Assembly (NCBI RefSeq): GCF_018977255.1
Contig: NW_024704742.1
Coordinates: forward strand, 8,558,001-8,622,000
Origin: Callorhinchus milii
Taxonomy: Eukaryota
Direction of reading: 5' to 3'
DNA length: 64,000 nt
Part shown: piece by piece, positions 16,401 to 59,947 of the stretch
How positions within the stretch are numbered: the stretch's first letter is position 1
How the letters are laid out: every line of letters begins with the position of its first letter
Notes under the pieces: generated by a model
What the model saw: the letters and a program-made list of their open reading frames with translations, nothing else
Database searches by the model: none
Told to the model about the DNA's origin: nothing
Program-made: the position numbers and the translations under genes

Positions 16401-17769
16401 GTGCACAAGGACAGGGTGAGATGTCTGTATTGGGATTCCCAGACACAGCCCCATATCTGGAAAATGTGTCATTTATGACATGATCAAGTGTAGATGCAGT
16501 GCTGCTCGGTGGGGGGAACATGAGCTGATCCCCTCCATGGCTAACAGATCGCTTATCTGCAGTTTGTGGGATTCAGGGAAGTCTAATACAGCAGCAATCA
16601 GTGCTTTTGGAGGGGAGAGGGAGAAAACATCCTGCGTGACTTTGTTAATGTATCACAATGTCAGTTCCAGCGCAGCATTGCAATTTAATCTGTTTTCAGG
16701 CAGCATCCGAGCTCCTGCGCAAAATATCCAGTCAAATCGAGAAGTGTTTTGCTGTAGTTATTGAGATCAGATTTTAAGTGGGATTGAGAAAGTAAACCTT
16801 TGGAACCACAGAACAAGAGCTCCCAGGTTCAGAGTTGCAGAGGGCGATTTCAGGACAGAAAGCAGGAAATATTTATTTACCAGAGGGTTAATTAAACCAT
16901 TTGCCAGGCAGAGTATTTGAGGCCAGATTGCAGTGATGGGTAGGATGTGTATTCTGGATAGAGGAGGAAAAATACTCATAAAAATCATAAAAATCTTACT
17001 TTTAATATTGTCCAGTAGTCTTTTTTATGTCCTCTTTGCCTTCCTAATTTTTTGTTTTGCTATTTTTCTGTGCCCATATCACAGATATATATTGATTATT
17101 ATAAAAACATTCTGATTTCTAGGTTGATACGAGGCCCTGAAGTCACCAGCAAACACTCATATCCATTTACCTGCTGCTGGCTGGATTTATCTAAACTGGT
17201 GGTTAATATGTAATCTTCAGTGTTCAATAATAATAATAATTCTTGCAGTTGATTTGACATCTTATCATATCTTAGTCTCAAAGCACTTCACAGAATATAC
17301 TATAACGCGAATTGACGGTGTACTTTGTGGGCAAAATGCGGCAGCCAACAATGCACAAAGCAGGTTTCTTCTGCCTAGAGTGAGAGTGAGCATCCTGTTT
17401 AAATAAACATGTGTCAGATACCCAGCTGACCAAAAAGAAATGTGTATACCCAATCACCGTGCTTAAAACTCTTTAAACCAAACTGAGAATTCATGTATCC
17501 CACCTACACATGGAAATTCCAGAGATGTTTAACTGGAATGGAATGCAACATTTTTGAAAACAGAGAGGTTTATCTGTCTCTGGACACACACCCTTCCCAT
17601 TGATCACTGATGAATTGTTTTACACACTAAATTCAAATTTAAATATAAGATGTGATCAGAATGACTGTAGTTATTGTCACTGAGGATAGAGTGATTGGAT
17701 TGACATTGGTTTTCTTTATTTCCAAAGGTTGTTCAGAAATATCATCAACGACAGGAAAGAGTTCACATA

Positions 17770-17791
17770 ATGGCAGGGATTCTCAAACCAG
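17770..17791 (+). CDS. APOL: APOL-like copy 1, start exon (MAGILKP, phase 1); whole exon ~17728-17791
   Basis: ttccaaag acceptor, then ATG GCA GGG ATT CTC AAA CCA G|gtaatt. Paralogous exon at 32796-32859. Phase matches the downstream 25-nt micro-exon. Confidence 0.65.
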
Positions 17792-17824
17792 GTAATTAAT
17801 CTATTGGAATTGATGAAAATTGGA

Positions 17825-18115
17825 AAGTCCTGTAGCTCAGTGGTTAGAGCACTCGCCTTGCAAGTGAGAGGACCTGGGTTTGATTCCCGGGCAGGGCGGA
17901 TTGCTCTTCTGAGGGTAATAATCCCTTCAAAAAGAAATAATAATTTGGTCATGCAATCCATGACTGTTTGTGGGACACTGCTGTGAGTAGTTGGCTGCCA
18001 TGTCTCGCTAAAAGATATGCAGTCAAGTCATTTTACAGTATATTTTGTTAAGTGTTGAGACATTTCAAAGACGTGATAAGGTGCTAAATCAAATGTAAGG
18101 ATTATTATTTTTATT
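17825..18115 (+). mobile_element. tRNA-derived SINE in the intron after the copy 1 start exon (absent from copy 2)
   Basis: A box TAGCTCAGTGG, B box GGTTTGATTCC. The paralogous intron at 32860-32930 is uninterrupted. Confidence 0.9.
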
Positions 18116-18412
18116 AAAATATGAACCTATTAATATTAACCCAAAACAAGTAATTTAGTGATTGGAATTGATGGCAATATTAACTTTCTATTCCAATCCT
18201 GCGCCCACTGCACCGAATAAGATAACAACCACCTGCCATCCCTCAGAATCAGGAGCAGCCCTGAGCCATCAAACACAACCCCACTGTCTGAAACCCCATC
18301 ACATTGAACCTCTTACCCCCACCTTCACACTCACTTAAATTCCACCAACTATGGTGACTGCGTGTGCCTGTGTGTGTTGGGGAGGGGTGGTATCTATGTG
18401 CTTCTTTCAGTC

Positions 18413-18426
18413 AGTTTCTCTTTCTT
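18413..18426 (+). promoter_or_regulatory. ISRE-like element
   Basis: AGTTTCTCTTTCTT matches the ISRE consensus AGTTTCNNTTTCY. It lies just upstream of a conserved exon-like block ending GAGTG|gtgagg (18594). AP-1-like TGACTCA at 18481. Confidence 0.5.
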
Positions 18427-18448: not shown

Positions 18449-18680
18449 ATGTTGAGTTTTCCCCACTCGCGGCTCCTGTGTGACTCACTGTGTTTGCCAG
18501 GAAAGAAGCCAAACCTTAACAGCAGTAGAGCTGTCACATTGCTGCTCTGCTCCTGTCGCTGCCGAGGGGAGATCGCTTTGTTTACCCGCGAGTGGTGAGG
18601 ACATTCCCTCCTGTGTGGTCACTGTATCAGTCAGGATTGTGTCTGTTCACTCTGCTAGTTGCAGATAATAACCAGTTATA
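18449..18680 (+). repeat. Near-identical paralogous block (possible alternative first exon plus intron); copy at 37703-37930
   Basis: Direct match (ccccactcgcggctcctgtgtgac...gagtggtgaggacattccctcc). A partial third copy starts at 33526. Confidence 0.9.
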
Positions 18681-18704: not shown

Positions 18705-18729
18705 ATGCAGATCTTGATGGGATGTACTG
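18705..18729 (+). CDS. APOL: APOL-like copy 1, 25-nt micro-exon ((D)ADLDGMY(W))
   Basis: ttaccag|ATGCAGATCTTGATGGGATGTACTG|gtacgtacag. Same length, phase and donor as three paralogous micro-exons. Confidence 0.65.
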
Positions 18730-20489: not shown

Positions 20490-20940
20490 CTTGCACTGCT
20501 TCGCTGCCTCTCTGCCTTCCTTCACCACTTCTGCCTTCCTTTGCGGTCTGTCTGCCCTCCTTCACGGCCCCTCAGCCCTCTTTCACTGCCTCTCCGCCCT
20601 CCATCATGGACACTCTGCCCTCCATCACTGCCACTCTGCACTCCCTGCCCTCCTTCACTGCCTCTCTGTCTGCCTTCCTTCACTGCCTCTCTGCCCTCCT
20701 TCACTGCCTCTCTGCCCTCCTTCACTGCCCCTCTGCCCTCCTTCATTGCCCCTCTGCCCTCCTTCACTGCCTCTCTGCCCTCCTTTACTGCCCCTCTGCT
20801 CTCCTTCACTGCCCCTCTGCCCTCCTTCACCTCCCCTCTGCCCTCCTACACTGCCTCTCTGCCCTCCTTCACTGCCTCTCTGCCCTCCTTCACTGCCCCT
20901 CTGCCCTCCTTCACTGCCTCTCTGCCCTGCTTCACTGCCA
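20490..20940. repeat. 21-bp minisatellite (ctgccctccttcactgcctct)
   Basis: About 20 tandem units. Confidence 0.95.
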
Positions 20941-21244
20941 CTCATCTACTCTATACACTTGCACATATCCTGGTTATCTGCCCCAGATATCAGCTCAGAT
21001 CACCCATCTGGTTATTAATCATATCAGCCTTGGCTGGTTAAACTACAATATACAATAAGTAACAGCAGACGACAGCTTCAAATACAAAATTCTTTTTCAG
21101 AGAATTAACTCTTCATAATCCATTACTCCACATATTGGCATCTTCTCATATCACACATGTTGCATTTCGGCTGCATTTGGGGTAAGGTAGGGTTGGATAT
21201 GAGCAAAGTATGAGGAGGTGGAGGAAGGAGGTCCTCTCTGCCTC

Positions 21245-22270
21245 TCTGGAAGTTTGCACTCATCCAGGCCCTGATGTCTGCCACACAAGCTGATAAAACA
21301 TCGGTGGACCTGGAGTTGATAGTGGAGGAGGCAAAGTAGATTTGTGTGTCATCTGCATACATGTGAAAGTTTACCCCACATCTGCAGAGGGAGCTTATGC
21401 ATGATGAGAATAAGAGGGCCAAGTATGGAGCCCTCGGGCCCACAGGTGACTGGACAGGGTGGGAGGAGAAACCATTTGCCGAGATGAAGTGGAGGCAGTT
21501 GGTTAAATAGGACTTGAAAAATGCGAGTGAGGTCCCTCTAAGGTGGATAAGGGAGGAGAGGCATTGGAGGAGGATGGCATGGTCAACTGTGTCAAATGCG
21601 GCAGAGAGATCCAGGAGGATGAGGAGGCAGAGGGAGCCCTGGTCACAGATAGAGAGAATGTCAATTGTGATTTTGACAAGTGCTGTCTCTATGCTGTGGG
21701 CAGTCAGGGTGACAACCAGGGGCTCGAGGAGGGAGTGGAGGGAGAGGTGTGACAGAAGTTGATCTGCAACAATGCATTCCAGGACTTTGGCAAGGAAGTG
21801 TAGCTTGGACATGGGATGGTAATGTAAGAGATTAGAGGGATAAAGGGAGGATTTTTTGAGGAGGGGTGTGACAACAACAGTTTTCAGGGGGAGTGGAACA
21901 AGCCTGAGGATAGAGACAGGTTCACCATGTCAGCCACCAGTGGGGAGAGGTGTGGGGAGTGACCAGCAGCTGGGTGGGGACGGGGTCGAGGCAGCAGGTG
22001 GTGAACTTCATGTGATTGATTGTTGTTGAGAGGGAGGAGGGAGAAATGGGGACAAAGGAGTATGAGGAGGAGAGCGGCAGGAGATGTGTTGTAGGGAGAA
22101 GATAGTGTGGATGGTCTGGGTGGAGTGGAAAAAGACAAGGGGTGGGAGGACGATGCAGGCAAGCACACAGATGTTTTCAATCTTTGAGGCAAAGAAGTCA
22201 AGGACCTTTTCACATTTGGCATTTGATCTGAGGATAGAGGGGGCTTGAGGGGATGCACAGAGGAGGTGAT
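21245..22270 (-). mobile_element. L2 LINE RT fragment
   Basis: [41 protein letters not shown]. Confidence 0.9.
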
Positions 22271-22275
22271 AGATG

Positions 22276-24052
22276 GTGACCCCTGAGTGGCCATTATCTG
22301 CTGCCAGAGTCGCTCAGCTGAGTGACAGAAAGAGAGAGGGAGGGGGGACAGAGGAGAGGGAGAGAGAGAGGAGAGTGGTGAGGGCGGGGAGAGAGGGAGT
22401 GGGGAGAGAGGGAGTGGGGATAGAGGGAGGGAGAGAGAGGAGAGGGGAGAGAGAGGGGGGAGAGAGAGAGGGGGCGGGATAGAGGGGAAGGAGAGAGAGA
22501 GAAGGGGTACAGAGGGAGGGAGAGAGAGAGGGATAGAGGGGAGAGAGGGGGATAGAGGGGAAGAGAGGGAAGGGGATAGAGGGAAGGGAGAGAGAAAGGA
22601 GAGGGGAGAAGAGAATGGGAGAGGGGGAGAAAGAGGGGAGAGGGGAGAGAGAGAGGAGGGTGGGGAGGGGGAGAGAGGGGACAGAGCGAGAGAGAAGAGG
22701 GGTGGAGAGAAAGAGTGGGGGTGCTAGTGAGGCGGAGAGGGGAAGGGGGATTAGGAGAGAGTGGATGTGGGGAGAGGTGGGGGGGGAGAGAGAGGAGGAG
22801 AAGGAGAGAGGGGAGGGGGTAGCGAGAAGAGGGGAAGAGAGAGTGGTGGGGGAGAGAAGGAGAGAGGAGGGGTTAGTGAGGGGAAGAGAGAGTGGAGGGG
22901 GAGAGAGGGGGAGCGGGGAGAGAGGGGGAGGGGGGAGAGAGAGAGAAGGAGGGGGACAGAGAAGGGAAGGTGGCGAGAGAAGGGAGGGGGGAGAGTGGGG
23001 AGGGGGCACGATTGAGAGAGGACAGAGAGAGTGATTGAGAGGAGGAGAAGAGAGTGATTGACAGAGAGATAGAGAGAGAAAGAGCATGAGGGAGGGAGGG
23101 AAAAAGAAATAGAGGAGAGGGGGAGAGAGAGAAACCTAAAGACTGAGAGAGCAGAGAGAGGACAATTGAGGAGAGACGATTGGAGCCTCCCTCAGCCACC
23201 GCGGGGTGTGCGTGGGGGAGAACGAGGTCAGATACCAAGTGAAGAGACGTGCAGTTCCCTCAGAGAAAACTCCCTCTTTCCCCAGTGAGAAACTTCTCTT
23301 TGTCCTTCATCCTGCCCCCACCTCCCCCCGCCCTGACCCCATCTCACCGCTCAGCCAATCCTTTGCCCAACAAACACCAACTTTCTTCATGTCCCCCCAC
23401 CCCATCTGCCCCATTATTGCCATTTTCGTGGAGTCCTGTAGCTCAGTGGTTAGAGCACTCGCTTTGCAAGTGAGAGACCTGAGTTCAATTCCAGGCAGAG
23501 GGCGAAACCTTGGACAAGTTTCCTTACTCCACACAGAGCCTAATAATAATCCCTCCAAAACCAAAAACAATAATAAATTGTTCATTTTCAATCTACGACT
23601 GTTTGTGGGACATTGCTGTGCGCAATTGGCTGCCGCGTTCGCCCACAAATGCACAGTCAATTCACTTTACAGTGTGTTCTATGAAGCGCTTTGGGACATC
23701 CTCCTGACGTGAAAAGCACTATATCAAATGCAAGGATTATTATTATTATTATTACTGGTCCTTAAACCCTATGCCTAATTTACACTAACCAGAATATGAC
23801 AAATGTCGCAATATTCAGAAATAGAAAATAGCCTGACACTAAACTGTGACACCAGCATCTCTATTCAAAGTTAATTTACAAAGGCAAAACAACCCTGACC
23901 TGGAGGCGAAGCTCTCGGGTCAGGTATGTACCTCCTTAATGACATACAAGGCGAAGAGTAACCCTGAGTTCAGCAAGCCCCCTTCTTTTATATGTCCTAA
24001 CGCCGACCCTTTGCAATGTATCTCATCCATTTTCCATCCATCTTTCATCTCC
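22276..24052 (+). repeat. Inverted duplication, left arm (GA-rich tract, SINE, unique sequence); runs into the gap
   Basis: Reverse complement of ~39620-41981. Near-identical ORF-track peptides on opposite strands (MTPASLFKVNLQ.., QFPQRKLPLSP.., TPEWP.SAARVAQ). Confidence 0.95.
23429..23753 (+). mobile_element. tRNA-derived SINE
   Basis: Full head, core and (att)n tail. Confidence 0.9.
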
Positions 24053-24082: not shown

Positions 24083-24118
24083 CCTAATCGCGATTGACTC
24101 TTTAGTGGTTAGTACGCT

Positions 24119-24714
24119 TTGCGGGTGCCGCCCAACAAACTGGGGGATACATCAATAGGAGAGATCGCCGATGATATTGACAAGTGTCAAGATAGAAGCA
24201 ACACTGCCAAAGTCGTGGGGTCTGCTGTGAAAATAGTTGGAGGGATTCTTGCAGTCGGAGGAGCACTCGCTGCTCCTTTTACCCTGGGGGCATCGTTGGG
24301 ACTCACGGCTGCGGGGGCTGGGATGGTCATCGCTGGCAATGTCACTAACTTCACAGCTCGTGTCGGATCGTCCTTCAAAAGAAAAAATAAGAAAAGACAA
24401 CTTGATGAGATTGTGAAGGAGTGTAGCTCAGCCCTTACAGAAATAGATAATTGTTTCCAGGTGAGCCGCAGCATGGAGTCAAACATGAAACACGGGAAGA
24501 CAAGGAAGAGGATCAAGAAGCTGATCACAAAAGGTATTCAATTTGCTGCCAAGTCCACTTTGTCATGCTTGCCCCTGCTGGGAGAAGTCACCTCGCTGAT
24601 CAGAAATGTGGTTAAGTACAAAATAGAAAAAAGAAAGCTGCAAAAATGATCCGAGAGAAAGCTGATCTCATGAAGGTTACATTAGATAAGCTGGACGAGG
24701 AGTACAATACATGA
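24119..24714 (+). CDS. APOL: APOL-like copy 1, terminal exon (5' part lost in the assembly gap; frameshift at A-run ~24627-24636)
   Basis: EIADDIDK...AKVVGSAVKIVGGILAVGGALAAPFTLGASLGLTAAGAG is the typical APOL hydrophobic hairpin. The -1 frame continues KAAKMIREKADLMKVTLDKLDEEYNT* (TGA 24712-24714). ATTAAA at 24801. Confidence 0.85.
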
Positions 24715-25429
24715 TTGTGACCCAAACAGCAGGAGACAAAAGCCCATGCATCACTGAGGGGCAGCCCTGTGAGTGAGGGAGTGATTGTTCTCAGAGTCAT
24801 ATTAAATATTAAACATTATTCCATTCCCTTCTTGATCCCCTTTGGTCTGATTTCCGCCCTGCCCACAGTTCAGAGACAATGCTTGTCAAAGTCTTCCCTC
24901 CCCCTGCCTCCATGTCCTCCATTACAGTTTTCTCTGCTTTGAGGGCCAATCATCCCATCCTTTCCCTGCTTCACTAGTTCCACTTCCCCCAGAGGATAGA
25001 ATTCAAGATCCTGGTCCTCACCTTTAAAGCCATCTGTGGTATTGCTCCTCCCTACGTTTACAACCTATTAAATCTGCACCAACCTGTCCACTCCCTCCGC
25101 TTTGCAGGCCCTGCCTGCTCCACAAACAATTTATGTCCAGTGCCTTGGGACGTCCTCCCAACATTCAAAAGTACTATCTGAATGCAATTTGTTGTTGTTA
25201 TTTGGAATGTGCTAATGAGGACAAAAGCTGTTAGCACCAAATGCTTTCTATCATTCTGTGAGAGTAGGAGCCCAACAATCGATCCCAAGAAAATAAGATG
25301 CAATTTTGTGTTCTTAAGGAAAGGTTTTATGACCTTAGGGGTCACAGTAGAATTATTATCATTTGGCCTCAACTTCGCCCCCACTCATTATCAGAATATG
25401 AAAAAAAAACAAATTGCTTTAGGGCGATG

Positions 25430-26948: not shown

Positions 26949-29149
26949 GGCTACTTTCCTTACTCTCTATGCCTCGGCCTGACTATTCCAATTGCCTGCT
27001 CACTGGACTTCCCAACTCTTCCCTCCACAAGCTGCAGGATATTAGGAACTCTGCAGCTCATGTCCTCTCCTTCACTAGGCTCCACGAACCAATCACCCCT
27101 GTTCTTGCCCAGCTTCACCGGCTTCCCAACCATCAGAGAATTGAGTACAAAACCCTCAAAATTAGCTTCAAAGCCCTTCATGGTCTTGCTCCTCCCCCTT
27201 ACCCTCACCGACCTCCTAACCGCTTATCAGCCTCTCTGCAGCGTCCGATCAGCGGACACCGGCCTGCCTCAGGTCCCCCACACTTCCCGCCCAATCATTG
27301 GCAGTCAGACATTTAGCATCTCCTATTTGACATAAATACAGTCAAATTGCTGGGATCCTATAAAGTGTTGAATGATTGTCCAAAATCAATCATATTTAGT
27401 GTAGCACTTTTACCAGCACGGAAACTCCCAACACATTCTTTCACTTTCACGTTTACTGTACAGAGTCAGCATTAGCTCTGAGGAATATGACTGTAATTTA
27501 ACAGTAATATGGTGGGACAGGACAAAGGTGAGGAAATAAATGAAGGTGTGATCACTGATATTCCAGTAAATGTGAGGCTGAGCAATAATTCCTGATACCA
27601 GTTTCAGAGATTCCACGGGGCATAGGACAAGGTTACAGGGCAGATCATTGGGAGACCAGTAATAGAGAGTAGTGCGATGGTTCTACACTGATAGTTCATG
27701 CACCAGAATGTTTGTCATAAAAGTTTGATGTAAAGGTCTATCTACAGCACCTTGGGACGTCCTCCTAATATGAAAGGTTCTATATAAATGTAATATTGTT
27801 GTTGTTGTTGTATCGTGTGCCAGCTGACTAGGTTAGCAGCTCTCAGGCCTCTGAGACTGGTTGTGGGTCCAAATCCCTCGCCAGGATTGGAGATGTCGTC
27901 TGACGTGAAGGGCTCTATAACACTCAATTCACTTTACAGTATAGTCTATAAAACGCTTTGAGATAGCTCGAAGACGTGATAAGGAACTATATCAAATGCA
28001 AGGATTATTATTATTGCTATAAATGTAAGTTGTTGTTATTGAACTAAGATACCACAGTATGGGGTGGAGGTATCTGCTGGAGTTAAACCAGCTGAAACAC
28101 CATAGCTTGCCATTGAGGGACAGAGTGCTTTATACTGAGGGGCATCTCCAGAGCAACCTACTACATTTTGGTCTGAGCTCCAATTCATTTTTGACCCAGT
28201 GAATGAGGGGCAGGAGAGCCCCTACCCCAGGGGGGGAGGGGAACAGCTCAATCCTTTCCCCCCCCCAAATTTCACACACACTCTCACAGCTTCCAGAGTA
28301 GCTGTCAGGATCACATGTCAACCTGGATTACGGTAGCAATCTTGACTACGGGTCAAAAGCTTGGTTCAATCCTAGGTGGGAGACATAGATCTCAAAGCTG
28401 TCATTCCACTTCAGTGCTGGAGGTGTGCTGTATTGTCAGAGGTAGTATCGTTTAAAAACAACAATGGGCATTAACTAGCCCGCTATTGATGATACCTCAC
28501 ACTTCACACAGAATAGTCTCTCAGAACGCTTCAGCTGTTAAATTGAGGTCCAATCTGCCTGGTCAGGTAGACATTAATGATCCTGCAGCAAAAATCAAAA
28601 AGAGGAGTTTCTCTCTTTCCGTTTCCTGTCCAACAACTACTATTGGTCATTCACTTCATGGTTGCGTGTGGGCTATTGCTGTGTGCAAATTGGATACTTA
28701 CAGTCACTCCATGGTGTGAAGCCCTTTGAGACATCCTGCTGACATAAAAGTTCCTGTTTGAAATATGGATTCTCGGAGGTGTCGTCCTTTGGATGAAATG
28801 TTAAACCAAGGTCCTGTCTGCTGTGTTCATATTGGCTATTGGGCTTTCCCCAAAACAACATGAACACCAACTTGCCTTTACAGTTTCCTTCATGTGAGAT
28901 AGCGTCTCGAAAGCTCAACAGTGCTGAGTCTGACACTGAGCCAGCGACAAAGGAAAGGTTGAAGAGGAAGGTCTTAAGGTGTGATCTGAAGCTGACAAGC
29001 CGGGGTGAGGCAGAGTGATTGAAGCAGACTCTCTAGAGTCTTGAGGAGATGAGGCTGAAAGCATGACCTTGATGGTGAAGTGGAAGGGACAAGCAGGAGA
29101 CTGGACCCAGCCGAGCAGATGCAGAGGCCAGCGGTGAGTGGGAGGGGAG

Positions 29150-30155
29150 GAGGCTGGTGTTGGGGGGGCTGGTGTTGGGGGGCTGTTATTGGGGGACTGG
29201 TGCTGGAGGCTAGTGTTGGAGGAGGATTCAGGGGGGCTGGTGTTGGGAGTGCTGGTGTTGTTGGGGTTGATTTTGGGGGGAGCTGGTGTTGGGCAGTTAG
29301 TGTTGGGGGTACTGGTGTTGGGGGGACTGATATTGGGGGGCCTGCTGTTGAGAGGTTTGGGAGTGAGACTGGTATTGGGGCTGGTGTTGGGGGTGCTGGT
29401 GTTTAGGGGGATGGGGCTAGGCTGGTGTTGGTGGGGGCTGGGTTGGGGGGCTGGTGTTAGGGGGCTGGTGTTAGGGGGCTGGTGTTAGGGGGAACTGATG
29501 TTTAGTGGAGCTGGTGTTTAGGGGGTTGGGGGTGGGACTGGTGTTAGGGGAGCTGGTGTTTTGGCTTGAGGGTGGGGCTGGTGTTGGGGGGGCTGGTGTT
29601 GGGGGGGTCTGGTGTTGGGGGGTCTGGTGTTGGGGGTGCTGGTGTTGGGGGTGTCTGGTGTTGGGGTAGGTCTGGTTTTGGTGGGGCTGGTGAGCAGTTG
29701 GTATTGGGGAGCTGGTGTTGGGGGACTGGTGTTGGGTGTCTGGTGTTAGGGGGTATGGTGTTGGGGGCTGATGTTGGGGGGGACTGGTTTTGGGGGGGGG
29801 GTCTGCTGTTGGGGGTGTCTGGTGTTGGGGGGGTAGTGAGCAGTTGGTATTGGGGGGTGATATTGGGGGGCTGGTGTTGGCGGATTGGTGGGCAGTTGGG
29901 GCTGGTGTTAGGGGGTTGGAGGTGCGGCTGTTATTGGGGGGCTGTTGTTTAGGGGGATGGGGGTGGGGCTGGTTTGGGGGGGCTGGTGTTGGGGTGGACT
30001 GGTGTTGTGGTGGTTGGGGGTGGGGCTGATGTTGAGGGGCCTAGTGTTGGGGGGCTGGAGTTGGGAGGGCTGGAGTTGGTGGCTGGTGTTGGCGGGGCTG
30101 GTGTTGGGTGGGGGATTGGTTTGTGTGAGGGCCTGTTGTTTGGGGGCCAGTGTTA
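29150..30155. repeat. G-rich ~15-bp degenerate minisatellite (ggggctggtgttggg)
   Basis: About 1 kb of tandem units with strong G bias on +. Confidence 0.95.
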
Positions 30156-31699
30156 AGGGATTAACACCAGCAACAAGCGAGAGTCAGAGAAACAGCGTCA
30201 CAGGTGGACAAACCCAAGTGTAAATCAGTCTACAACTGGCCAGCAAGTGGCACTGCAGGAGATGAGCTACAAGGCTTCAGAAAAGCGGCTGAGAAGGGTC
30301 AGCCTGGGGTATGTATCCCGGCCTCGACACACTGGGGATCACTTTCTGACTATGTACAAACAGGGAAACTGGGTCCTCACTCATTACACAACAGTGAGGA
30401 GGACAGTGAGTAACATGGTCTGGTGAAACTCCAATTCAGCTCTGTTTACACTGTTCAAATATACCTTAGGAACTATTCTACATTCTAGTTTTAAATGATA
30501 CAAACACAGTCCAAATTCCAAAGTCAAAAAAAATCGTTTCTGTTTGCTAACTGTCTGAAAGAGAATAATCCTCACTCACTATTTACTGTCCTTGGGAGTT
30601 TCCATGATCAGGTTTTATAAAGAAAAGCTTTGCTTTAACCATCTGCCTTCCCTATGCCGCCCTGACTCACAGAGACAAGGCTTGGACAGAGGGAACTGGG
30701 GCACTGCTGGAGTTTAACCGCTAAATCCTCATAGCTTGCCATTGAAAGCACTGTGTGTGGTGAGCCAGGCTGGCTGGGCTGCCATCAGCAGTGCCTTGGA
30801 GAACTGCACACCCGCCTCACTCAGCCACAGAGGATCGACTTGATTCTGAGGTTCTTGTGCCAGTTATTAGAGTTCAGCTCCAAGAAGGCCTTAACAGGGA
30901 GCAGCAGAATGCAAGTAAAAAGGGCGAACGTATATTTGTGGCATGAAGCTGGATGGATACATGAGCCAATGGTTCAGAATCTACAAGAGAGATGGTCCTA
31001 TCAGATCTAATAATGAGCAACAGTGTGAGGATGGAGAGCAGGTTACTTGGTCAGAGCACCTGGCACACAATGAGCATAATATGATTGAGATTGATGTCCT
31101 GAGAGGAGAGGGAGCAACGCAGACTCCATCTGGAGCAATAAAACCATAAAAATCCCTCATTTACTTCCTAGCCATTCCTGCAGAATGTAAATTTGCTGCT
31201 ACTTTTGTATATAAAATACACAGTCACTGCACTGTGAGTTTCTTCAAGATGTGAAAGTTGCTATAACAAATGCAAGGATTATGTTATTATTTTGCCACCC
31301 ACCTGACTCTCCAAATCATCCCTTTCCTACATCTAACTTATTGGCTATTAGTCACCCCCAGTAATCTGTCTAGGTCCTTTTAGAAGCTTCCTTCCGTTCT
31401 GCCTGTGCTGATAGCTTGTTCATGGCATTCCTGAGAACATTCTGAGAGAATGTAAAATGTAAGATTGTGTGGAATGTGGAAAACAAAATGAAATATAATC
31501 TTGATTTGGGAGCTGGGTTCTGTCTCTCTAATTTCTCTGATTATTTTTTATGAGTTGGTGAAATCTGTTTGAATGGTAGGTAGACATGTGGCGAGGCTCT
31601 TGTTTGAAACACTATGTGCCAATCTGGAATAGAATCCAACCACAGCAAACACTCACAAGTTACAGCAACTGAAAGAGTTCAAGGAACTTGTTCAGGTCA

Positions 31700-37930: not shown

Positions 37931-37963
37931 GATAATGGCTCCTGTTTCTCCCTTGTTCAACAG

Positions 37964-44249: not shown

Positions 44250-47200
44250 TTTTGTTGGAGTCCTATATAAAGGAGAAGACTTGCAAGAGCGTCACTTGAG
44301 CAGAGATCCCAGCAGCATGAGGAGGGAACTGAGTGAGATGGAACAGAATGAGAATTCTGTTAAGAAACTTGGTGAGAATGGGAATTCGATGTAGATGGGC
44401 AAAGAGGTGCATAATTACAAAATATGTAAGTTAAATTAAAATAATATAAAAAAATGTCAGGGCCGCTGAGACAGGTTGCATGCACAATGTATGCCGTGTG
44501 GGGACTCCAGGATGCTTTGTGTGGCCTGGACAAGCACATGTATAGGAAGTGTCTTCGGCTGGAGTTTCTGAGCTCAAGGAAAGGCTGGTGTCATTACAAA
44601 GCATACGGGAGGTGATGAGTTCATGGATTGAACATTTCAAGAGGTGGTCACCCCACAGCCACAGAGGGTTCAGATGGAGAGTGGGTGGTTGACCACCTGG
44701 CATGATAGGATGAGGGAACGGACCATGCAGAAATCCCCTGACAGTGTGGCATTCACAAACTGATTCTCTGTACTGAATACCGGTCAGGGTGATGATAGCT
44801 CTAGGGAGGGGAGTCAAAAGCAATTGGATGCACAGGGGGACACAGGGAAAAGTGTCAATGCAATTGTCATTGGGATGAAAGGAGTAAACAGGCATTTCTG
44901 CAACCAAGACGTGACTCTCGCATGGTGTGTTGCCTTCCTGGTGTTAGGGTTGAAGACATCATGGAATGGGTGGAAAATGTCTACAGGGGGAAGGGGAACA
45001 TCCAGAGGTTGTGGTCGATGTTGGGATCCATGACGTAGGGAAAAAAAGGGATGAGATCCTACAAGGAGAGTGTCAGAAGCTAGAGAAAAAGCTAAAGAAT
45101 AGGACCTCAAAGGTGGTGATCTCTGGATTACTCCCAGTGCCTCGTGCAAGTGAGTATCAAAACAGCAGGATGAAACACATGAATGCATTGGTGGAGAAAT
45201 GGTGCAGAAAGGAGAGCTTCAGGGTTCCTGAATCATTGGTACCAGCTCTGAGACAGTTTGGACCAGTACAAGGTGTATGGGTTACACCTGAACAGGGACC
45301 AACGTCTTCGCAGGGAGGTTAACTATGCTGTGGAGAAGGTTTTAAAATAATTTTGAGGGGGGAAGGGAATCAGGATGTAGCATTAGAGACAACAAACAAA
45401 TTACATAGAGGGCTGGGAGAGAAGAATAACAATGTAATAAGGAATAATGTAGAAAAAGGAGGGATTAGATGAGAGAGAAATGCAGAACAAACTAAAACGA
45501 TCTTGGAGTGCATGTGCATAAATGCACAGAGTGTGTTGAATAAGGTTGGTGAGCTGCAGGCTCAAGTTTCCACGTGGGGTTATGATGTATGGCAATAAAG
45601 GAGACCTGGCTCAAACAAGGGCAGGAATGGGAGCTGAATATTCCTGGTTACAATGTATTCAGGAGGGATAGTGAAGGACAAAAAACGAGGGGGGGGGGGC
45701 GTGGCAATATTGATTAAAGACACGGTTACTGACCTGGAAAAGACGATGTGCTAGAGTGTCCAAAAACAGAATCTATTTGGTTAGAGTTAAGGAGCAGAAA
45801 AGGATCTGTTACTCTGTTAGGTGTATAGTATAGACCACCAAATAATGGGAAGGAGATAAATGAGCAAATCTGCAAGCAGGCTTCAGAAAGATGCAAAACC
45901 AATAGAATGTTAATAATGGGGGACTTCAATTATCCTAATATACACTGGTAAAATAACAGTGCAAGGAGGGGAAAGGATGTGCAGGATAACTTTCTGGATC
46001 AATGTGTTTCCAGCCCAACGAGGAAGGAAGCAGTGCTGGATTTAGTTCTGGGGAGTGAAGTGGGGCAAGTGGAGCAGGTTTTAGTAGGAGAGCATTGAGT
46101 TCAAGATACTTGTCTTCACCTTGGCCTTGCCATCTCCTACCTCTCTGACCTGCTGATTCCCTACCAACCTGCCCGCTCCCTCCGTTCATCAGGCTCCGGC
46201 CTGCTCCATGTCTCCCACCCAACCCGCCCTACCATCGGAGGCTGGGGTTTCAACCTCTCTGCCCCACACTCTGGAACTCCATCCCACGGTCCCCTCACCT
46301 CGCTTCTTCTCTTGTCTCCTTCAAGGCCGGTCTCAAGACCCTTATCTTCGACCGTGCCTTTGGTCTGCCTCTCACCTCTATGCCTTCCCTCACGCCTACA
46401 CCACCCCACCCCATGCTCGGGCCCCGACACCTGACTGTTCAGCACTTTGGGACATCCTTCCGACGTGAAAGGAGCTCTATAAGTGTGATTTTGTTGTTGT
46501 TGACAACAGCAATCACAACATCATTAGGTTTAGTGTACTTATGAAAATGGACAAGGAGCATCAAAGGTGAAGATACTCAACTGGAAGAGGGATAATTTCA
46601 GTGAGTTAAAAAGGGACGTAGCCAAGGTGGACTGAAAGAAAGATTGGCAGGTAAAACAGCTAACGAGCAATGGGAAGTCTTCAAGGAGGAGATAGTTTGG
46701 GGACAGAAATAATAATTTCCACAAAGGGGAAAGATAGAGCATCCAAACCTCCCTGGATAAATAAGGAAATTGGGATTAAAAATTGGGAATAAACAGAAAA
46801 AGGTCCAAAATACAGAAGATCATCAAATAGAATATAGAAAGTATGGAAGAGAACTGAAAAAGGAAATAAGAGGGGCAAAGAGATTGTCGGTGCTCAAGGT
46901 AGATAAGTAAACCGGTCTGGACTGGATGCACCCTAGATTACTGAGGGTGTAAGGGTGGAAATAATGAAGGCTCTGGCCACATTTTTTTAATCCTCCTCGG
47001 ACATCGGGGTGGTGCCAGTGTACTGGAGCATTGCAAATGTTACTCCCCTGTACACAAAGTGCCAGAAGGATAAACCTGGGAACTGCAGGCCAGTCAGCCT
47101 AACTACGGTAGTGGGGAAACTTCTAGAGACTGTAATCCTGGACAAAATAAATTCTCACTTAGAAAAATATGGGTTAATAAAGGACAGCCAACTCGGATTT

Positions 47201-48232: not shown

Positions 48233-48253
48233 AAAGTGAAAGTGAAAGAAAGT
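48233..48253 (+). promoter_or_regulatory. IRF-E/ISRE element upstream of APOL-like copy 4
   Basis: AAAGTGAAAGTGAAAGAAAGT (tandem GAAAGT repeats) ~75 bp upstream of a CAG|gtaaat donor at 48330. The intron after that donor resembles the one following the donor at 31770 in copy 2. Confidence 0.65.
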
Positions 48254-48284
48254 TGTGTTGTAAATTTGCGCACACCTTTATGCA

Positions 48285-48329
48285 TGTCATGTTCAGCCGG
48301 TCAGTCACACAGGTCACCCAGGCTACCAG
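48285..48329 (+). other. Putative non-coding first exon of copy 4 (start approximate)
   Basis: CAG|gtaaat donor. Downstream motif tgatgttgagga.cag.gagatc.ta is shared with 31857-31883. Confidence 0.4.
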
Positions 48330-49289: not shown

Positions 49290-49960
49290 TCCCGGTGTGG
49301 CCGCACTCCGCCTTAACTATCTGGATCTCTATTCAGCCACTACATCCCAAAACTCTGGACTACACTCCCTCAATCCCTCCGCCTTGCCTCCTCTCTCCCC
49401 TTTTTCAAGTCTTGCCTGAAAACGTTCCTTTTCAACCATGCATAAGGTTACCTCCCCCACTGCCCCCCAACCTGCATTGAACTGTTGGAAATTTCCCCTC
49501 ATCCACGACTTCATGTCCGACAGACAGTCTGTCAGGACAGCGGTGGTCCTGGAGTTGAGGGTGGAGAAAGATAGAGTTGGGTGTCATCTGCATACATATG
49601 GAAGTTGACCCCATGTCTGCGGATGATGTCACCAAGGGGGAGCATGTAGATGTTAAAGAGGAGAGGGCCAAGGACAGAGCCCTGGGGGACGCCAGATGTG
49701 ACGGTGCGGGGGCTGGAGGAGAAACCGTTAGAGGCAAAAAAGTGGAGACGGTGAGAGAGATTGGAATCAAACCAGGCAAGGGCAGGTTCGCGAAGATTAA
49801 GTAAAGAGGAGAGGCGGTGTATGAGGATAGAGTGGTCAACAGTGTCGAAGGCAGCAGAGAGGTCGAGGAGGACAAGGAGGCAGAGGGAGCCCTGATCACA
49901 GATGTTCAGAATGTCACTAGTGACTTTGACCAGGGCTGTTTCTGTGGTATGGGCAGTGTG
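49290..49960 (-). mobile_element. L2 LINE RT fragment
   Basis: [41 protein letters not shown]. Confidence 0.9.
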
Positions 49961-50256
49961 GAAGTGTGGATTGAAAGGGGGGAAAGGTATGTGAAAACCT
50001 TCAGAATTACTGGAAATCTCCTGTAAGCAGGGTGGCTCCCTCCAGGGAGTGTGCACTTTCCATTCCAATTTACAAGAATTTTCATATATAGCTAGAATTT
50101 GGTAGATCGGGTTTTAAGGTTTATGGGGCAAGGGTGGATAATTGGACTGGAGGAACAGATCAGCCATGATCTTATAGAATGGCAGAATGGGCTTGAGGGA
50201 CTGAATGAATAGAGATGCACTCCTGTAATATTGATTTCCTTTACCTCTTCAGAAAC

Positions 50257-50341
50257 ATGATCGTTGAGGTTACAGGATCCTGGTCTAATCTCATCGTTCT
50301 CTTCCTCTTAGTCCTTCTGGCAGCATGGTTTCTCATGTCAG
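50257..50341 (+). CDS. APOL: APOL-like copy 4, start exon encoding a hydrophobic leader (MIVEVTGSWSNLIVLFLLVLLAAWFLMS, phase 1)
   Basis: Polypyrimidine tract, ttcag|AAACATGATC...ATGTCAG|gtaagg. Both ends resemble the start exons of copies 1 and 2 (ttcagaaacat; CTGGCAG..TTCTCA..CAG|gta). Phase is compatible with the micro-exon at 53391. Confidence 0.6.
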
Positions 50342-54339: not shown

Positions 54340-57300
54340 TCTTGAAGGTTCATTGACAATGCCGGAGCATGGCATTCTATCTTTGATTTATACTGAGGAC
54401 TGATATGTCTCGATTTTCCACATCGGAATCAAACTACTTGTTTCTTTACACTTACGGTTTCTCCCTTTTTTCCTTCTTGCCATGAAAATTTGGCTTTCCA
54501 TTTCCAACCTGTGAGAGTCCCGCATTTTTCCACATCATTCTGAGTTTATTTTCCACCAATATGTTTCCTTTATGGCTCCTTAAATTTTCTTTCTCACCCT
54601 GTCTTGCTCCCACTTCATTACCATTCCCTTAAAAACTGCCACCATCACGCCCACCCTGAAAAAACCCTCCCTTGATGCGTCGCAGCTATCAAGCTACCGG
54701 CCCATCTCCAACCTCCCCTTTCTCTCCAAGGTCCTGGAAAGAGTTGTTGCCTCCCAACTGCGCTCTTTCCTTTCCACCCATTCACTTTTCAAACCCCTTC
54801 AGTCAGGTTTCCGTGCTGCCCATAGCACAGAAACTGCCCTGTTCAAGGTCACCAATGATATCCTGACCATCTGTGACCAGGGCTCCCTCTGCCTCCTCGT
54901 CCTCCTCGTCCTCCTCGACCTGTCGGCAGCATTCGACACGGTCGACCACGCTATCCTACTCCACCGCTTGTCCTCCCACCTCAACCTTCAAGGCACTGTC
55001 CTTGAATGGTTTAGCTCTTACCTTTCCCACCGTCTTCACTTTGTCTCGACGAATGGCTTCTCCTCCACCCCCCGTACTGTCTCATGTGGTGTCACTCAGG
55101 GCTCTGTCCTCGGTCCCCTCCTCTTCACCCTCTACATGCTTCCCCTTGGTGACATCATCCGCAGACATGGAGTTAACTTCCACATGTATGCGGATGACAC
55201 CCAACTCTACCTTTCCTCCTCTGCTCTCAACTCCACGACCCCCGATGTCCTGACAGCTGCCTGTCCGACATCGAGTCCTGGACGAGCGACAACTTTCTTC
55301 AGCTCAACGTGCGAAAAACCGAGGCCCTCCTGATTGGCTCACGTCAGCGCCTCCGCACCTCAGGCGCTGACAGCATCAGCATCCAAGGCTGCACTCTCCA
55401 CCTCTCAAAGCCAATCAGGAACCTCAGCGTTTTGTTCGACCCTGAGCTGTCCTTTCTCCCTCACATCCGCACCACAACTGGCACCGCCTTCCATCACCTC
55501 CGGAACATCGCCAGACTACGGCACTACCTCACCCCTCACGCTGCTGAAACCCTGGTCCACGCCTTTGTCACCTCAAGGCTGGACTATGGGAACTCTCTCC
55601 TCGCCGGCCTTCCCGCCACCTCCCTCCACAAGCTGCAGGTCATTCAGAACTCTGCAGCTCGTGTACTGTCCCGCACCAGGCTTCGGGACCACATCATTCC
55701 CACCCTCGCTCGCCTCCACTGGCTCCCCATCCCCCAGAGGATTGATTTCAAGATCCTCATCCTCACCTATAAGGCCATTCACGGCCTCGCTCCCTCCTAC
55801 CTCTCTGACCTACTATCCCCCTACCTACCTGCCCGTACCCTCCGTTCCTCTGGCTCCGGTCTGCTCCACGTCCCCCGCCCCAATCGCCCTACCATTGGTG
55901 GTCGGGCCTTCAGCCTCTCAGCCCCCAGGCTCTGGAACTCTATCCCCCAGTGCCTTCGCCGCTTCCTCCCTCTCCTCCTTCAAGGCCGGTCTCAAAACCT
56001 TTCTCTTTGACCGAGCCTTCAGCTCCCCTCTCGACTCTCTTCCCCTCCTCGCTCCCTCCCTTCCCTCCCCTCACCCTGACCATTTCCCCCCTCCTCGCTC
56101 CCTCCCTTCCCTCCCCTCACCCTGACCATTTCCCCCCTGCTCGGGTCATGACCCAACTGTGCAGCGCCTTGGGACGTCCTCCTGACGTGAAAGGCGCTTT
56201 ATAAATAGAATCTTGTTGTTGTTGTTGTTGTTGTGATCTACGCCTCATCATAGTACTGATTGTTCCTATCCCAGCTTTCTTCAAATCTAGACTTGTACGG
56301 TGGTAAGGAATGGGTAATGATCATTCTGTGCTATTCTGCAAAGTGATCCAGATTATTATGGACCAAATATTCGATATTCAAATACTTCCCATTGTCTGTC
56401 TTTATAACATTTTGGATGTTCTCCTGGTATTTGTCTGCAATGCTCCAATACTGTATTGGGATCTCCTTTATCATATCTTATGGCATTTAAGGTGTTTCCT
56501 TGGAAGTTGGCAGAATGCCTTTCCCATATTTCATGTCCACTGATAAGGTTTTAAACATTGTTGTGGACAATATCGCTACTAGTAACCTGAAATGTCCTTT
56601 ATCATCACATCACGTGTATTTTGTATAGCTCCGCGCTCTGCCTCATTAAATGATTAAAGGCATCCAGTTTTCCAACAAATTTGAGAATGATATTTGCCAT
56701 TACTTGTAGTTGCATTGTAGTTGCATTGTGTCATATGGTATTTTTACTCGAGCTACCTCTTCATCCTCGCCATCTGGGTTAGGTTTCAATTTGTATTGAG
56801 GGGTTGGATACAATGACAAGGCTTTCACTTTTCAGTATTTGACAGTAAATTCCCATCTCAACATTGTCGCTTCCATCATGATACTGATAGGCTTCATCGT
56901 CTAGACTTCTCCAATCAATTGATTCAGCAGCCACTGTGTCCAGTCATGGTATAGATTATACCCCTCTTAACTGTGTGCTGTTCTTGTATTTTTTTCTATT
57001 TATTTTTGGTATGCAACATGTGATCCCCTTTTCTGGCTTTTTGCGACAGAGCTGCTTGCACTCTAATTACAGTGTGTAAATCACTATTCTGTTCAAGTTG
57101 TTTAATATTTTGCTGAACATTTCTCTTACATTCATTTATCTTGTCACCCCATTCCTGCACTTGCCTCAAAATATCAGTTGCCTGTACCTGATAATATTTG
57201 GTGTAAACTTCTAAACTGTATACTCTCCACATCTAAAAGATTCAATTTCTTCCCTTCCATTTGAACTGTTCTATTTGCAGATTATCCTTAAAATCAATCA

Positions 57301-57720
57301 ATTGGTATTCAGCCTCTTGGGGTCTTTTTTCCTGTTTATCCAGTTTCTTTTGAGCTCCTTTTGAGTTTCTTTCAACTCTTTTACATCAGTTTCTTTCAAC
57401 TCTCTTATCTCTGTTTCCAGGGTTTCTTTGAACCCTTTTAAATCTCTTAATTCTCTGATTTCAGAGATCTGTATTTAGACATCTGCAAGGTTTTAATCCA
57501 TGCAGCTTCAGTTTGGTTATTCTTTTACCTTTTTTATTTTTTATTCTTTTTTATTCTTTTATCTCTTCATTCTGCAAAACTTCATCCACATGTCTCAATT
57601 GGCGTGTCACTCATTAGTGGCTCCTTAAAGCTCCTCATGTTCAGGTAACCTTTTCTCCACATATGCTCTCTTTGAATTTGCCACGTTTTTTAGAATACTT
57701 TTTCTAATTCTCCAACTGTA
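54340..57720 (-). mobile_element. Decayed gag-like remnant split by the L2 insertion
   Basis: Degenerate CCHC knuckle (*FRCGKSRHISPQY) at 54390-54431 and A-rich, coiled-coil-like broken frames at 56240-57700. Confidence 0.35.
54600..56234 (+). mobile_element. Relatively young, 5'-truncated L2 LINE
   Basis: Long RT ORFs ([34 protein letters not shown]), CpG retained, tail gcgctttataaat..(ttg)n. Confidence 0.95.
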
Positions 57721-58967
57721 TTAAAGAGGCAGGGAGAGAGTAAGTAATTGGGGATGGAGTTCCAGAGGGTGGGGCGGGCCGGGTGGGAGATGTGGAGCCT
57801 GCAGAGTGACCCTATCCCTAAGTCTTAGGATTAGGTTGATAAGGGGTTAGTAGGTCGGAGACGTAGGAGGAGGCCATGGAGGGTCTTGAAAGCAAGGACG
57901 AGGATTTTGAACTCGATCCTCTGAGGGATGGGGAGCCAGATGAGGATAATAATAATAAGAAGAAGAAGAATAATCCTTACGTTTGATATAGCACTTTTGA
58001 CATCTTCTAGACGTCTCAAAGCACTTCACAGAATATACTGTAAAGTGAATTTAATATAATGTAAAGGATGGGGATGGAGTCACAGAGCCTGGTACGGGAG
58101 AGGACATTAGCTGCAGAGTTCTGGATGATATATTACAACGGGTTAGTAATCAAATTAATGCTTATGACAGGTTAGTAAAGTTCATTGCAATGGTTGGTTG
58201 GATCAATATAACGGCTTTGATAGAGGAATCAACTTATTAACTGGTTGGGTTGATCCAAAACTCAGCTCTTCTCTTTAAGCTCAGCTCTCCTCCCTTCATT
58301 GAGAATTATCCTTACATTTATACCTCGTAAAGACGTACATATCAACCTTGTCAAGATATCTGGAATTTAGCTTTACTGAAAACATCTTTGGAGTCGGACA
58401 GTTTCATCCCTTCACTGATATCCACAGTTGTCAACATCTTTTCGACTTTATAAAAATTCAAACAATTCTTTGCCTTCCCACAATGATGTTGAAGAAGAAA
58501 ACTTTGTTCCATAAACATCCTGTCACTTGTTTTCCGTTGTCCTTGGCCTTCGTACATGTGTGTAAATAGTCAGCTTTTACAAAGAAAACAAACCCATGAA
58601 CCTTTGCAATCTTCTTTGGTCAACCAAAGACGACCCAGAATTCTTGGGTTGCTTACACTAGCCTAAGGAAGATAGATAGAAAGTGCACTAAAGTGTCAAA
58701 GGCAAAAGTTGAAGGGAGCTCGAGTAGTAATGCCTGTGTCTCCTGAGAAGAAATATTTATTTTTGGAAATCTGTAAATCATTTCTTGGCTTCTGCTGCTC
58801 TCATTGCTGGATCTCTCACTGCTTTGCTCACTTTAGCAAATATATTGGGCCTTTTTTATTAAGCTTTAAAGTTTCAGCTCAAAAATATGTATTGTTCTAA
58901 ACTGTTATTTCTCTGACAATGTGTGCTTATGTGAGAACAGATATCATTGTATTTATAATATTAACAG

Positions 58968-59947
58968 GGAAGCCCTCGAAGCTGAGATGCAAAAGAGAAT
59001 TGAAGAAGTGCAACGCTTTAAAGATCTGTTTCCTGAATGGCAAAAAAGGATGAGAGAACACGAAAGAGGACTGTGCAATATTGCGCACGATATTGACACA
59101 GTTCACCAAAATGCCACAGTAGCCAACATTACAGGGACCTCAATCGGCCTTGTCGGAGGAATTCTATCCATTGGTGGATTAATCTCTGCTCCTTTTACAA
59201 TGGGTTTATCATTGGGGCTCATGGGTGTGGGAGCTGGCATAGGTGTAGTTGGTGGTGTCACTAACGTTGCAGCTAGTGGTGTGGATGCTTTTAAACAAGG
59301 GAAATTATCAACAGCTATTGATGAAATCATGGAACAATATAAAGGACAGTACAAAAATGGCAAATTGCCACAATCAGTGTATCAACGCAATTCAATTCTT
59401 ACATCTCTGCATTGATGTTTCACAATGTAGAGCTGAAACCTCAACAATAAGAAAGGACATTCTTTCTAAAATGTGCAATTCAAAAAGAGATTCAGCAAAC
59501 AAAATGGTAGGAGATGTAGTGAGGGAAGCAGTAGATAAAGCACCAAGGATGGTAGCAACAATAACAGCGAGAATGTCAAGAAAAGCAGCAAAACAAGCAG
59601 TGAACAAAGCAGTAGAAGAAGCAGCAGGAAAAGCAGCAGGTAAAGTAACAGGTAAATCAGTAGGTAAAGCAGCGGGTAAAGCAGCGGGTAAAGCAGCAAG
59701 TAAATCAGTAGGTAAAGTAACAGGTAAAGCAGTGTTCAAAAACATGAGCAAATCAGGGTTATGCAAATTGGGGGCTGCTACAGCTTTGTCAGGACTCATT
59801 ATTGCATGGGATATCTATTCTATAGTAAAGGATTTCATGAAACTTGCAGAGGGATCAGGGACAGAACTTTCTAATCAGATACGAAAATTGGCCCAACAGA
59901 TAGAGGATGAAGTAAAGATTTATGAAATTATTCATAAGTCTCTATAA
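58968..59947 (+). CDS. APOL: APOL-like copy 4, terminal exon (frameshift at 59341-59343)
   Basis: ttaacag|G GAA GCC. Contains FPEWQKRM..LCNIAHDIDTVHQNATVANITGTSIGLVGGILSIGGLISAPFTMGLSLGLMGVGAG. The second frame gives KDSTKMAN...LSGLIIAWDIYSIVKD...GSGTELSNQIRKLAQQIEDE, a classic APOL C-terminus. Confidence 0.9.

Follow-up and report, generated by a model that had tools for sequence, protein, structure and literature searches.

The window analysed here is a 64,000-nucleotide stretch (C1:8558001-8622000) of the genome of the chimaera Callorhinchus milii, which a preliminary description made from the letters alone had read as a tandem cluster of four apolipoprotein L (APOL)-like genes in a probable cartilaginous fish. 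The window is a slice of a much larger APOL cluster. A 127-aa translation of its last unit, unit 4, has a single match in the protein database, P0001 (NCBI "uncharacterized protein LOC121849701", Callorhinchus milii, 420 aa), at 77% identity, and P0001 itself maps at 100% identity to C1:8444908-8446008, ~172 kb upstream. In homology searches across the 991.5-Mb genome, P0001 gives 49 matched stretches at E <= 0.01, 41 of which lie within C1:8,353,880-8,727,640 on both strands. Grouped by position (our own grouping), these matches correspond to ~29 APOL-like large exons in a cluster of ~375 kb, and one further APOL-like gene lies outside it, at 72.3 Mb. The Pfam ApoL profile finds 14 stretches in the genome, 12 of them inside the cluster interval. 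The explanation we favour, and consider probable, is that this slice holds a young tandem duplicate, mostly decaying gene copies and a two-module APOL gene.

The four large exons of the preliminary description all exist on the + strand, but they do not amount to four genes: units 2 and 3 form one gene, unit 1 is truncated and unit 4 is chimeric. Throughout, units 1 to 4 denote the window copies, and the copies ~171.5 kb upstream serve as the reference for the single-base deletions. The exons are the following.

17728-17793, + strand: unit 1 leader exon A, with an ATG at 17771 and exit phase 1
18501-18594, + strand: conserved "exon B"-like piece bounded by AG and GT, without an ATG; a candidate exon only
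18705-18729, + strand: unit 1 micro-exon of 25 nt, found by pattern search, with an AG acceptor and GTACGTACAG donor context
24154-24720, + strand: unit 1 large exon, 5'-truncated and APOL6-like, with a 1-base deletion at 24631
32795-32859, + strand: exon A of the unit 2+3 gene, with an ATG at 32838 (MAQISRP) and exit phase 1
33642-33666, + strand: first micro-exon of the unit 2+3 gene, 25 nt, placed by alignment to the unit 4 micro-exon region
35873-36503, + strand: module 1 (unit 2), a hairpin-less APOL-like exon with a GAAG/GT donor at 36503/36504 and a 1-base deletion at 36177
37964-37988, + strand: second micro-exon, 25 nt, between the two modules, placed by alignment; a micro-exon of the same type occurs in sequencing contig X5 record 32
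38094-38792, + strand: module 2 (unit 3), an APOL-like terminal exon with a half-degenerate hairpin, a 1-base deletion at 38680 and 97% amino acid identity to C1:8424592
48280-48329, + strand: coding part of unit 4 exon 1, MHVMFSRSVTQVTQAT, exit phase 2; 18 of 19 residues match P0001, the mismatch lying at the exon end
50253-50341, + strand: unit 4 exon 2, 89 nt, a hydrophobic leader (signal or anchor) with a hydropathy peak of 2.35; 30 of 30 residues equal P0001
53391-53415, + strand: unit 4 micro-exon, 25 nt, DSKRCNED, placed by alignment to P0001
58968-59947, + strand: unit 4 terminal exon, with a full APOL domain, an Ala/Gly/Lys repeat insert and a 2-base deletion near 59335-59340

Membership of the APOL family rests on several kinds of comparison. 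The curated cut-off of the Pfam ApoL profile (PF05461) is 25.9 bits, and three of six pieces of open reading frame (ORF) in the window exceed it: 24113-24649 in unit 1 (51.4 bits), and 58870-59415 and 59249-59947 in unit 4 (89.4 and 28.3 bits). Pieces of unit 2 (35796-36203, 15.3 bits) and unit 3 (38071-38733, 15.7 bits) score below it, and a second unit 2 piece, 36149-36583, has no ApoL match. Intact copies of both modules also pass: module 1 scores 26.2 bits in the upstream copy and 29.5 bits in a second one, with a third below the cut-off at 25.0 bits, and two copies of the common type of module 2 reach 32.9 and 34.8 bits. The unit 3 type of module 2 stays below the cut-off (15.7-18.0 bits) and is placed in the family by tblastn, by a phylogenetic tree and by Atlas features, for which the listed matches are ApoL clusters with a top score of 0.93. 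In tblastn between units every cross-match falls on + frames at 29-42% identity. The four APOL-type exons of the preliminary description are borne out as large exons, if not all as terminal ones, and so is the high divergence it ascribed to them.

The members also differ in leader, hairpin and insert, as had been proposed. A transmembrane (TM) leader and the Ala/Gly/Lys repeat insert characterize unit 4. The hydrophobic, Gly/Ala-rich helix-loop-helix hairpin is present in units 1 and 4. It is missing from unit 2, where the alignment to P0001 has a 35-residue gap across the hairpin and hydropathy finds no hydrophobic segment, and is half kept in unit 3, which has one segment with a hydropathy peak of 1.94 and a charged second arm. 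The C-terminal amphipathic helix occupies profile positions ~244-295; the second frame of unit 4 matches positions 164-293, module 2 of loci L039 and L041 matches to position 295, and the unit 3 tail matches the tails of units 4 and 2. The C-terminal tail of unit 1 can be read only past its frameshift.

A 25-nt micro-exon precedes each of the four large exons, in keeping with the preliminary description. All four are bounded by an AG acceptor and by a GTACGTACA donor context within a shared AACAG/A...CAG/GTACGTACAG frame (slashes mark splice borders), and the surroundings of the unit 4 micro-exon are 80-81% identical to 37919-38055 and 33597-33708. The matching exon phases that had been claimed hold for units 2, 3 and 4, where the micro-exon has entry phase 1 and exit phase 2, the latter leading into the large exon, but not for unit 1, which has no acceptor of fitting phase. 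The phase symmetry of the micro-exon and large exon as a unit means that modules can be chained.

Much of the window closely resembles a block further upstream in the cluster.

24154-53925, no strand assigned: putative young segmental duplicate of C1:8410573-8440624, found by megablast as three colinear blocks

The blocks are 95.8%, 98.4% and 99.0% identical at an offset of ~171.5 kb, and over ~29,755 aligned bases the two copies differ by 255 substitutions (0.86%) and 94 indel events, 72 of them single-base. That 24154-53925 is a young tandem segmental duplicate is, in our judgement, probable, an assessment that takes in the decaying copies and the two-module gene as parts of the same explanation. 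Two NCBI models describe upstream paralogs, and next to them the copies in the window show truncation, chimerism or frameshifts: the unit 1 protein shares 98% identity with that of the P0002 exon, and unit 4 exons 1-3 lie within a block 99% identical to the P0001 gene, whereas the unit 4 terminal exon shares only 77% protein and 79% DNA identity with P0001. Within module 1, the first 273 bases (35873-36145) are identical in the window and upstream copies, and the last 340 (the 36146-36484 region) hold ~20 differences and a 3-base insertion, nearly all protein-changing by eye; this second part looks like a gene-conversion tract or a hot spot.

The left breakpoint, 24154, lies inside the large exon of unit 1. 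To its left are unrelated sequence, a 30-N run and an inverted, 97% identical copy of a dispersed repeat from within the block. The unit 1 exon shares 98% amino acid identity with C1:8410571-8411062, which is the NCBI "apolipoprotein L6-like isoform X1" (P0002, 243 aa), and the intact upstream exon extends ~32 codons further 5' and has an acceptor. Because it is cut at 24154, the window exon has no usable acceptor; by our reading, its remaining open frame contains no AG that fits the micro-exon exit phase. The leaders of unit 1 resemble those of units 2 and 3 (86-94%): the exon A region 17689-17820 shares 86% identity with its unit 2 equivalent, 32757-32888, and 18449-18680 is 94% identical to 37703-37934 in unit 3. 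No counterpart of these leader exons (17.7-18.7 kb) was found upstream of the intact P0002 paralog gene. "Unit 1" is therefore a set of foreign leaders juxtaposed with a truncated exon. After its frameshift, the unit 1 tail stops at a TGA (24712-24714) two codons short of the paralog stop, ending ...EEYNT where P0002 ends ...EEYNTRL. The "exon B"-like pieces at 18501-18594 and 37755-37848 were dropped as coding exons: spliced after exon A they run into a stop at the micro-exon junction, and the contigs covering the unit 3 copy (records 16 and 31) are unspliced.

The right breakpoint, 53925, falls in the intron after the unit 4 micro-exon, where the 99% block stops. The terminal exon lies beyond it, in 58065-61402, a region that shares 89-95% identity with the gene at C1:8503840-8507638 but no more than 79% with the P0001 gene. 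This makes unit 4 a chimera, with leaders from the duplicate and the terminal exon of a sister subfamily. The closest relative of its terminal exon is locus L005 (C1:8504744-8506183), with an open frame of 501-515 aa. The protein-database search with unit 4 returned P0001 alone (77%) and no protein for L005, which may thus be without a protein model. Single-module genes, too, have kept at their ends the GAAG/GT donor with which module 1 closes (59940-59950 in the window, and loci L004 and L005). The codon at that donor is TAA in unit 4 and the C1:8504744 gene, and GAA in P0001, whose protein runs on for 16 residues. From these sequences the APOL large exon looks as if built to be chained.

Under the favoured explanation, a ~30-kb block would have been duplicated in tandem, 171.5 kb away, within the large APOL cluster. 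Its left breakpoint would have left a truncated APOL6-like exon, now behind the leader exons of another subfamily, and its interior would have supplied a complete copy of the two-module gene. At its right breakpoint, the duplicate's promoter, TM-leader exons and micro-exon would have come to stand before the resident terminal exon of a sister subfamily, forming unit 4. The window copies would since have been decaying, the upstream originals being the working genes.

Frame-breaking deletions are the basis for the last of these steps. All four window large exons are frame-broken and none has an uninterrupted spliced frame, whereas the upstream copies are open. Compared with intact paralogs, unit 1 is missing one base at 24631 (a G flanked by A runs), unit 2 one base at 36177 (A3 to A2), unit 3 one base at 38680 (T3 to T2) and unit 4 two bases near 59335, the last relative to both related genes (L004, L005) and outside any homopolymer. 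Since each window large exon, as assembled, has one frame-breaking deletion missing from the intact paralogs, the window copies are most likely decaying or non-functional. The preliminary description had correctly seen that no ORF gives a complete protein. It had treated this as an annotation problem; the cause is mainly one frame-breaking deletion per exon, and two upstream paralogs already have NCBI models. The three single-base coding indels in ~1.9 kb come close to the density estimated for the non-repeat part of the block (72 in 29.8 kb overall), so the exons look unconstrained rather than under selection. We regard real decay as the probable origin of the frameshifts.

An unlikely reading, although the strongest of the alternatives, accepts the duplication and takes the four frameshifts for assembly consensus errors or private alleles of the reference animal; the window would then contain a working two-module APOL and a chimeric TM-leader APOL, and only unit 1 would be dead. 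Several observations weigh for it and against decay. The deletions at 36177 and 38680, two of the four, are contractions within three-base homopolymers, and all three single-base coding differences in the block break the window copy and never the upstream one. Public sequencing contigs from runs X1, X2, X5 and X13, none on record as RNA, were compared with window positions 30200-39100. X1, X2 and X5 each have one contig across 38679/38680, and all three contigs include the extra T of the intact form (3/3), the window deletion being absent. For the 38680 frameshift in particular, a private allele or an assembly error is therefore a possible origin. Counting against the favoured explanation more generally, X1 has upstream-copy letters alone at diagnostic sites such as 30354, 30391 and 30462. 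Against this reading, the unit 4 deletion removes two bases outside a homopolymer, unit 1 has lost a G between A runs, and the coding indel density is about that of the surrounding non-coding duplicate. The two copies differ within 38411-38771 only by the 38680 indel, so that contigs there are not assignable to either copy, and contigs drop rare variants.

Units 2 and 3, which the preliminary description had kept as separate genes, are one two-module gene. It runs from exon A through a micro-exon to the hairpin-less module 1, and from there through another micro-exon to module 2. The APOL domain of unit 2 ends CTGGAAG/GTACAG, with a phase-1 donor at 36503/36504, and no ATG leader was found for unit 3, the only exon A homologues in the window being at 17689-17820 and 32757-32888. 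The spliced junction was found in X5 record 32 (706 nt, depth 390), which joins ~20 letters ending at 36503 to micro-exon letters and then to 38090-38753. Run X5 is RNA-like: in three unique bins outside exons its depth is zero, against 14-35 in the DNA-like runs, and over both modules it is 136-390; run X13 has no cover on module 1, and no conclusion was drawn from it. Spliced by coordinates, the upstream copy gives an uninterrupted frame of 466 aa, and the frame of the window copy is broken at its two deletions. Six further loci have the order module 1, micro-exon, module 2. Five of their six joint frames are open (471-478 aa), with AG/GT at every joint, which with the upstream copy brings the open two-module frames to six. 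On this evidence, at least one two-module gene is transcribed and spliced. Record 32 departs from the window at 13 of 664 letters and has a different micro-exon, so that it comes from another copy or allele; the contig documents the architecture and not the expression of the window copy.

That units 2 and 3 are nevertheless separate genes, joined in the contig by read-through or an assembly chimera, seems improbable. The joint occurs in a single contig with ~20 letters on its upstream side, and X5 record 30, which covers 36564-37100 beyond the donor, is compatible with unit 2 ending alone at the stop 36581-36583. Yet the joint falls exactly at the phase-1 GT donor, in the phase that the micro-exon requires. 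No exon A homologue lies between the modules, and donor, micro-exon and open joint frame recur at five of six other loci.

Genome-wide, module 1 exons comprise seven that are open and full-length, one decayed copy with nine stops and the window copy in two frames, and the hydrophobic hairpin is missing from all of them. Pairwise ratios of nonsynonymous to synonymous divergence (dN/dS) range over 0.4-1.4 in module 1 and 0.8-2.5 in module 2. That the frames have remained open at dS ~0.05-0.18 speaks for selection to keep a rapidly changing protein intact, and open frames kept at dN/dS ~1 or higher would be as expected of arms-race effectors. No module-1-like sequence was found among the 163 proteins searched, and a protein-database search with the unit 3-type domain returned no protein of at least 229 aa; this gives a weak indication that the two-module genes lack protein models. 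We lean, by a modest degree, towards regarding these genes as a class of elephant-shark APOL gene for which no earlier description was found, in which a hairpin-less N-terminal module and a hairpin-keeping C-terminal module are joined via a phase-symmetric 25-nt micro-exon. Purely by inference, the hairpin-less module could be a built-in regulator of the membrane-active module, or a pathogen-facing decoy for it.

Among the fetched loci, the micro-exon of X5 record 32 matches only the gene at C1:8517-8527 kb (L041). Its combination of an L041-identical micro-exon with a module 2 that is 98% like unit 3 is absent from the fetched reference loci and points to copy-number or haplotype variation in the cluster. 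It is very improbable that the 30-kb block is itself no more than a divergent haplotype which the assembly set in tandem with the upstream block, its units being alleles and not extra genes: the N run lies 71 bases from the left breakpoint, making the left junction less certain and weighing against a duplication, as do the upstream-copy letters found alone at several diagnostic sites in X1, but 0.86% substitutions and 94 indel events are large for two haplotypes, the right end runs into a different, L005-like terminal exon, X2 has both forms at 30939/30940 and 36484, and the inverted 97% repeat copy on the left flank, which comes from inside the block, points to rearrangement.

Two GAAA-repeat motifs had been put forward as interferon-response elements, that is, as an interferon-stimulated response element (ISRE) or interferon regulatory factor (IRF) element (IRF-E), and both are present.

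18413-18424, - strand: exact ISRE consensus GAAAGAGAAACT, in the intron between unit 1 exon A and the micro-exon
48233-48252, + strand: triple GAAA repeat AAAGTGAAAGTGAAAGAAAG, ISRE/IRF-E-like, 28-47 nt before the unit 4 ATG (a distance to the ATG, not to the transcription start)

The first is the sole exact ISRE (GAAANNGAAACT) match in the window and lies outside the 18449-18680 block common to unit 3. The second is an IRF-E-like GAAAGTGAAAG triple repeat. Counted over the window, such motifs are barely above chance. The loose pattern GAAANNGAAAS has six matches against 1.9 expected, a number reached in 3 of 100 shuffles; the strict ISRE 12-mer with at most one mismatch has five against 6.65 expected and is not enriched, which weighs against interferon control. 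Beside the identical upstream copy, the cluster contains three diverged paralogs of unit 4 exon 1 with its flank. In the aligned distinct promoters the GAAAGAAAGTTG core is kept in all four and the canonical GAAANNGAAA spacing in two. Unit 4 resembles known ISRE/IRF-E elements in the GAAANNGAAA(C/G)(T) repeats that adjoin its first exon, and departs from them in that canonical spacing is confined to two of four paralogous promoters. Control of the unit 4 type promoter by IRF/ISGF3 is suggestive, no more; by analogy with mammalian APOLs, transcription would probably be raised by IRF/ISGF3 at the GAAA repeats adjoining exon 1. A second GAAAGTGAAAG stands at 27438-27448 (- strand), within the 8 kb that separate unit 1 from the unit 2+3 gene's exon A. 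As exon A has an acceptor, an unseen first exon should lie upstream, and this motif might mark the promoter of the unit 2+3 gene.

Relationships were examined in a quick tree of 42 rows, made up of the window units (with X at breaks), 22 C. milii, 7 elasmobranch and 9 bony-vertebrate rows, with SH-aLRT support only and long branches flagged. The shark sample is small and was chosen by similarity to P0002, and all rows selected were kept. Unit 1 falls together with P0002, P0003 and P0004 (support 100), and unit 4 with the C1:8504744 gene, P0001 and P0015 (support 100). A clade of 14 C. milii rows (support 96) comprises every row of module 1, module 2 and the unit 3 type, and the 72.3-Mb gene of C. 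milii joins proteins of Mustelus and Heptranchias (support 94). Each window unit falls in a starred clade of C. milii sequences only, which is consistent with the lineage-specific APOL expansion of the preliminary description and would fit an expansion within the chimaera lineage.

The family itself is known, and its C. milii and shark members already carry NCBI names such as "apolipoprotein L6-like". A phmmer search with P0002 reached 1058 representatives at E <= 0.001, and among 20 matches looked up were "apolipoprotein L3-like / L6-like" proteins of seven sharks and rays, sturgeon, bichir, teleosts and amphibians. The shark and ray proteins (Heptranchias, Mustelus, Carcharodon, Cetorhinus, Pristiophorus, Chiloscyllium and Hemitrygon) belong to the same family as the window units, whereas the subfamilies that hold the window units contain C. 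milii rows only in the quick tree. No paper on chimaera or shark APOLs was found among those listed in a literature search, judged by title and with subscription journals outside its coverage. To our knowledge, APOLs have been studied almost only in mammals. APOL3 acts on bacteria in the manner of a detergent.

Human and mouse APOL1-6 share with the C. milii genes a Pfam ApoL match, the Gly/Ala-rich hairpin, where it is kept, and the C-terminal amphipathic helix. They also have in common a coding sequence mostly in one large last exon behind small leaders, and a tandem, fast-evolving arrangement. One member type with a hydrophobic leader recalls the signal peptide of APOL1 (PMC8557400). In contrast, the C. 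milii types are only 25-45% identical to any non-chimaera protein listed, and they differ in the 25-nt micro-exon before every large exon, the two-module genes, the hairpin-less module and the Ala/Gly/Lys repeat insert. By analogy with the mammalian APOLs, the chimaera proteins would be helical, membrane-active proteins that insert via the Gly/Ala-rich helix-loop-helix hairpin, to which the unit 4 type would add an N-terminal hydrophobic leader. In published accounts, the APOL family arose early in vertebrates (PMC8557400), APOL1-6 are innate immune effectors of which APOL1 is a cation channel (PMC8358165), and APOL1 is among the membrane-protein interferon-stimulated genes in a zebrafish/human comparison (10.1101/693333).

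The window also contains several kinds of repeat. Four RVT_1 fragments of LINE-like elements (E 1e-28 to 9e-13) lie at 11529-12191 (-), 21123-21929 (-), 49532-50113 (-) and 54584-55333 (+), one of them within the last intron of unit 4, adjoining the right end of the duplication. A dispersed repeat of ~300 bases (for example 17826-18116) has more than 10 copies in the window at 70-97% identity, including one in unit 1 between the ISRE motif and exon A. Between the gene units lie long, strongly strand-skewed minisatellites (GC skew up to +/-0.44), at 20492-20943, 22332-23002, 29152-30113, 41066-41929 and 42639-43370, and the indels that distinguish the two duplicate copies fall mostly within them. 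A weak OSK-domain match at 44954-45322 (+; E 7e-4, 19.3 bits, under the cut-off of 27) is possibly part of a transposable-element ORF.

An annotation should enter the copies in the window as probable pseudogenes or assembly problems and not count four new genes. Membership of the APOL family is in itself ordinary; the main interest lies in the two-module architecture, which may be new, and in a clear case of duplication making truncated and chimeric APOL genes. A single 30-kb duplication would simultaneously have given a truncated copy, a complete copy and a leader-swapped chimera, which illustrates how such clusters grow. If true, two-module APOLs with a hairpin-less first module offer a natural experiment on the role of the non-membrane parts of APOLs. 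With ~29 large exons in a chimaera, large and fast-turning APOL arsenals would date back to the base of the jawed vertebrates.

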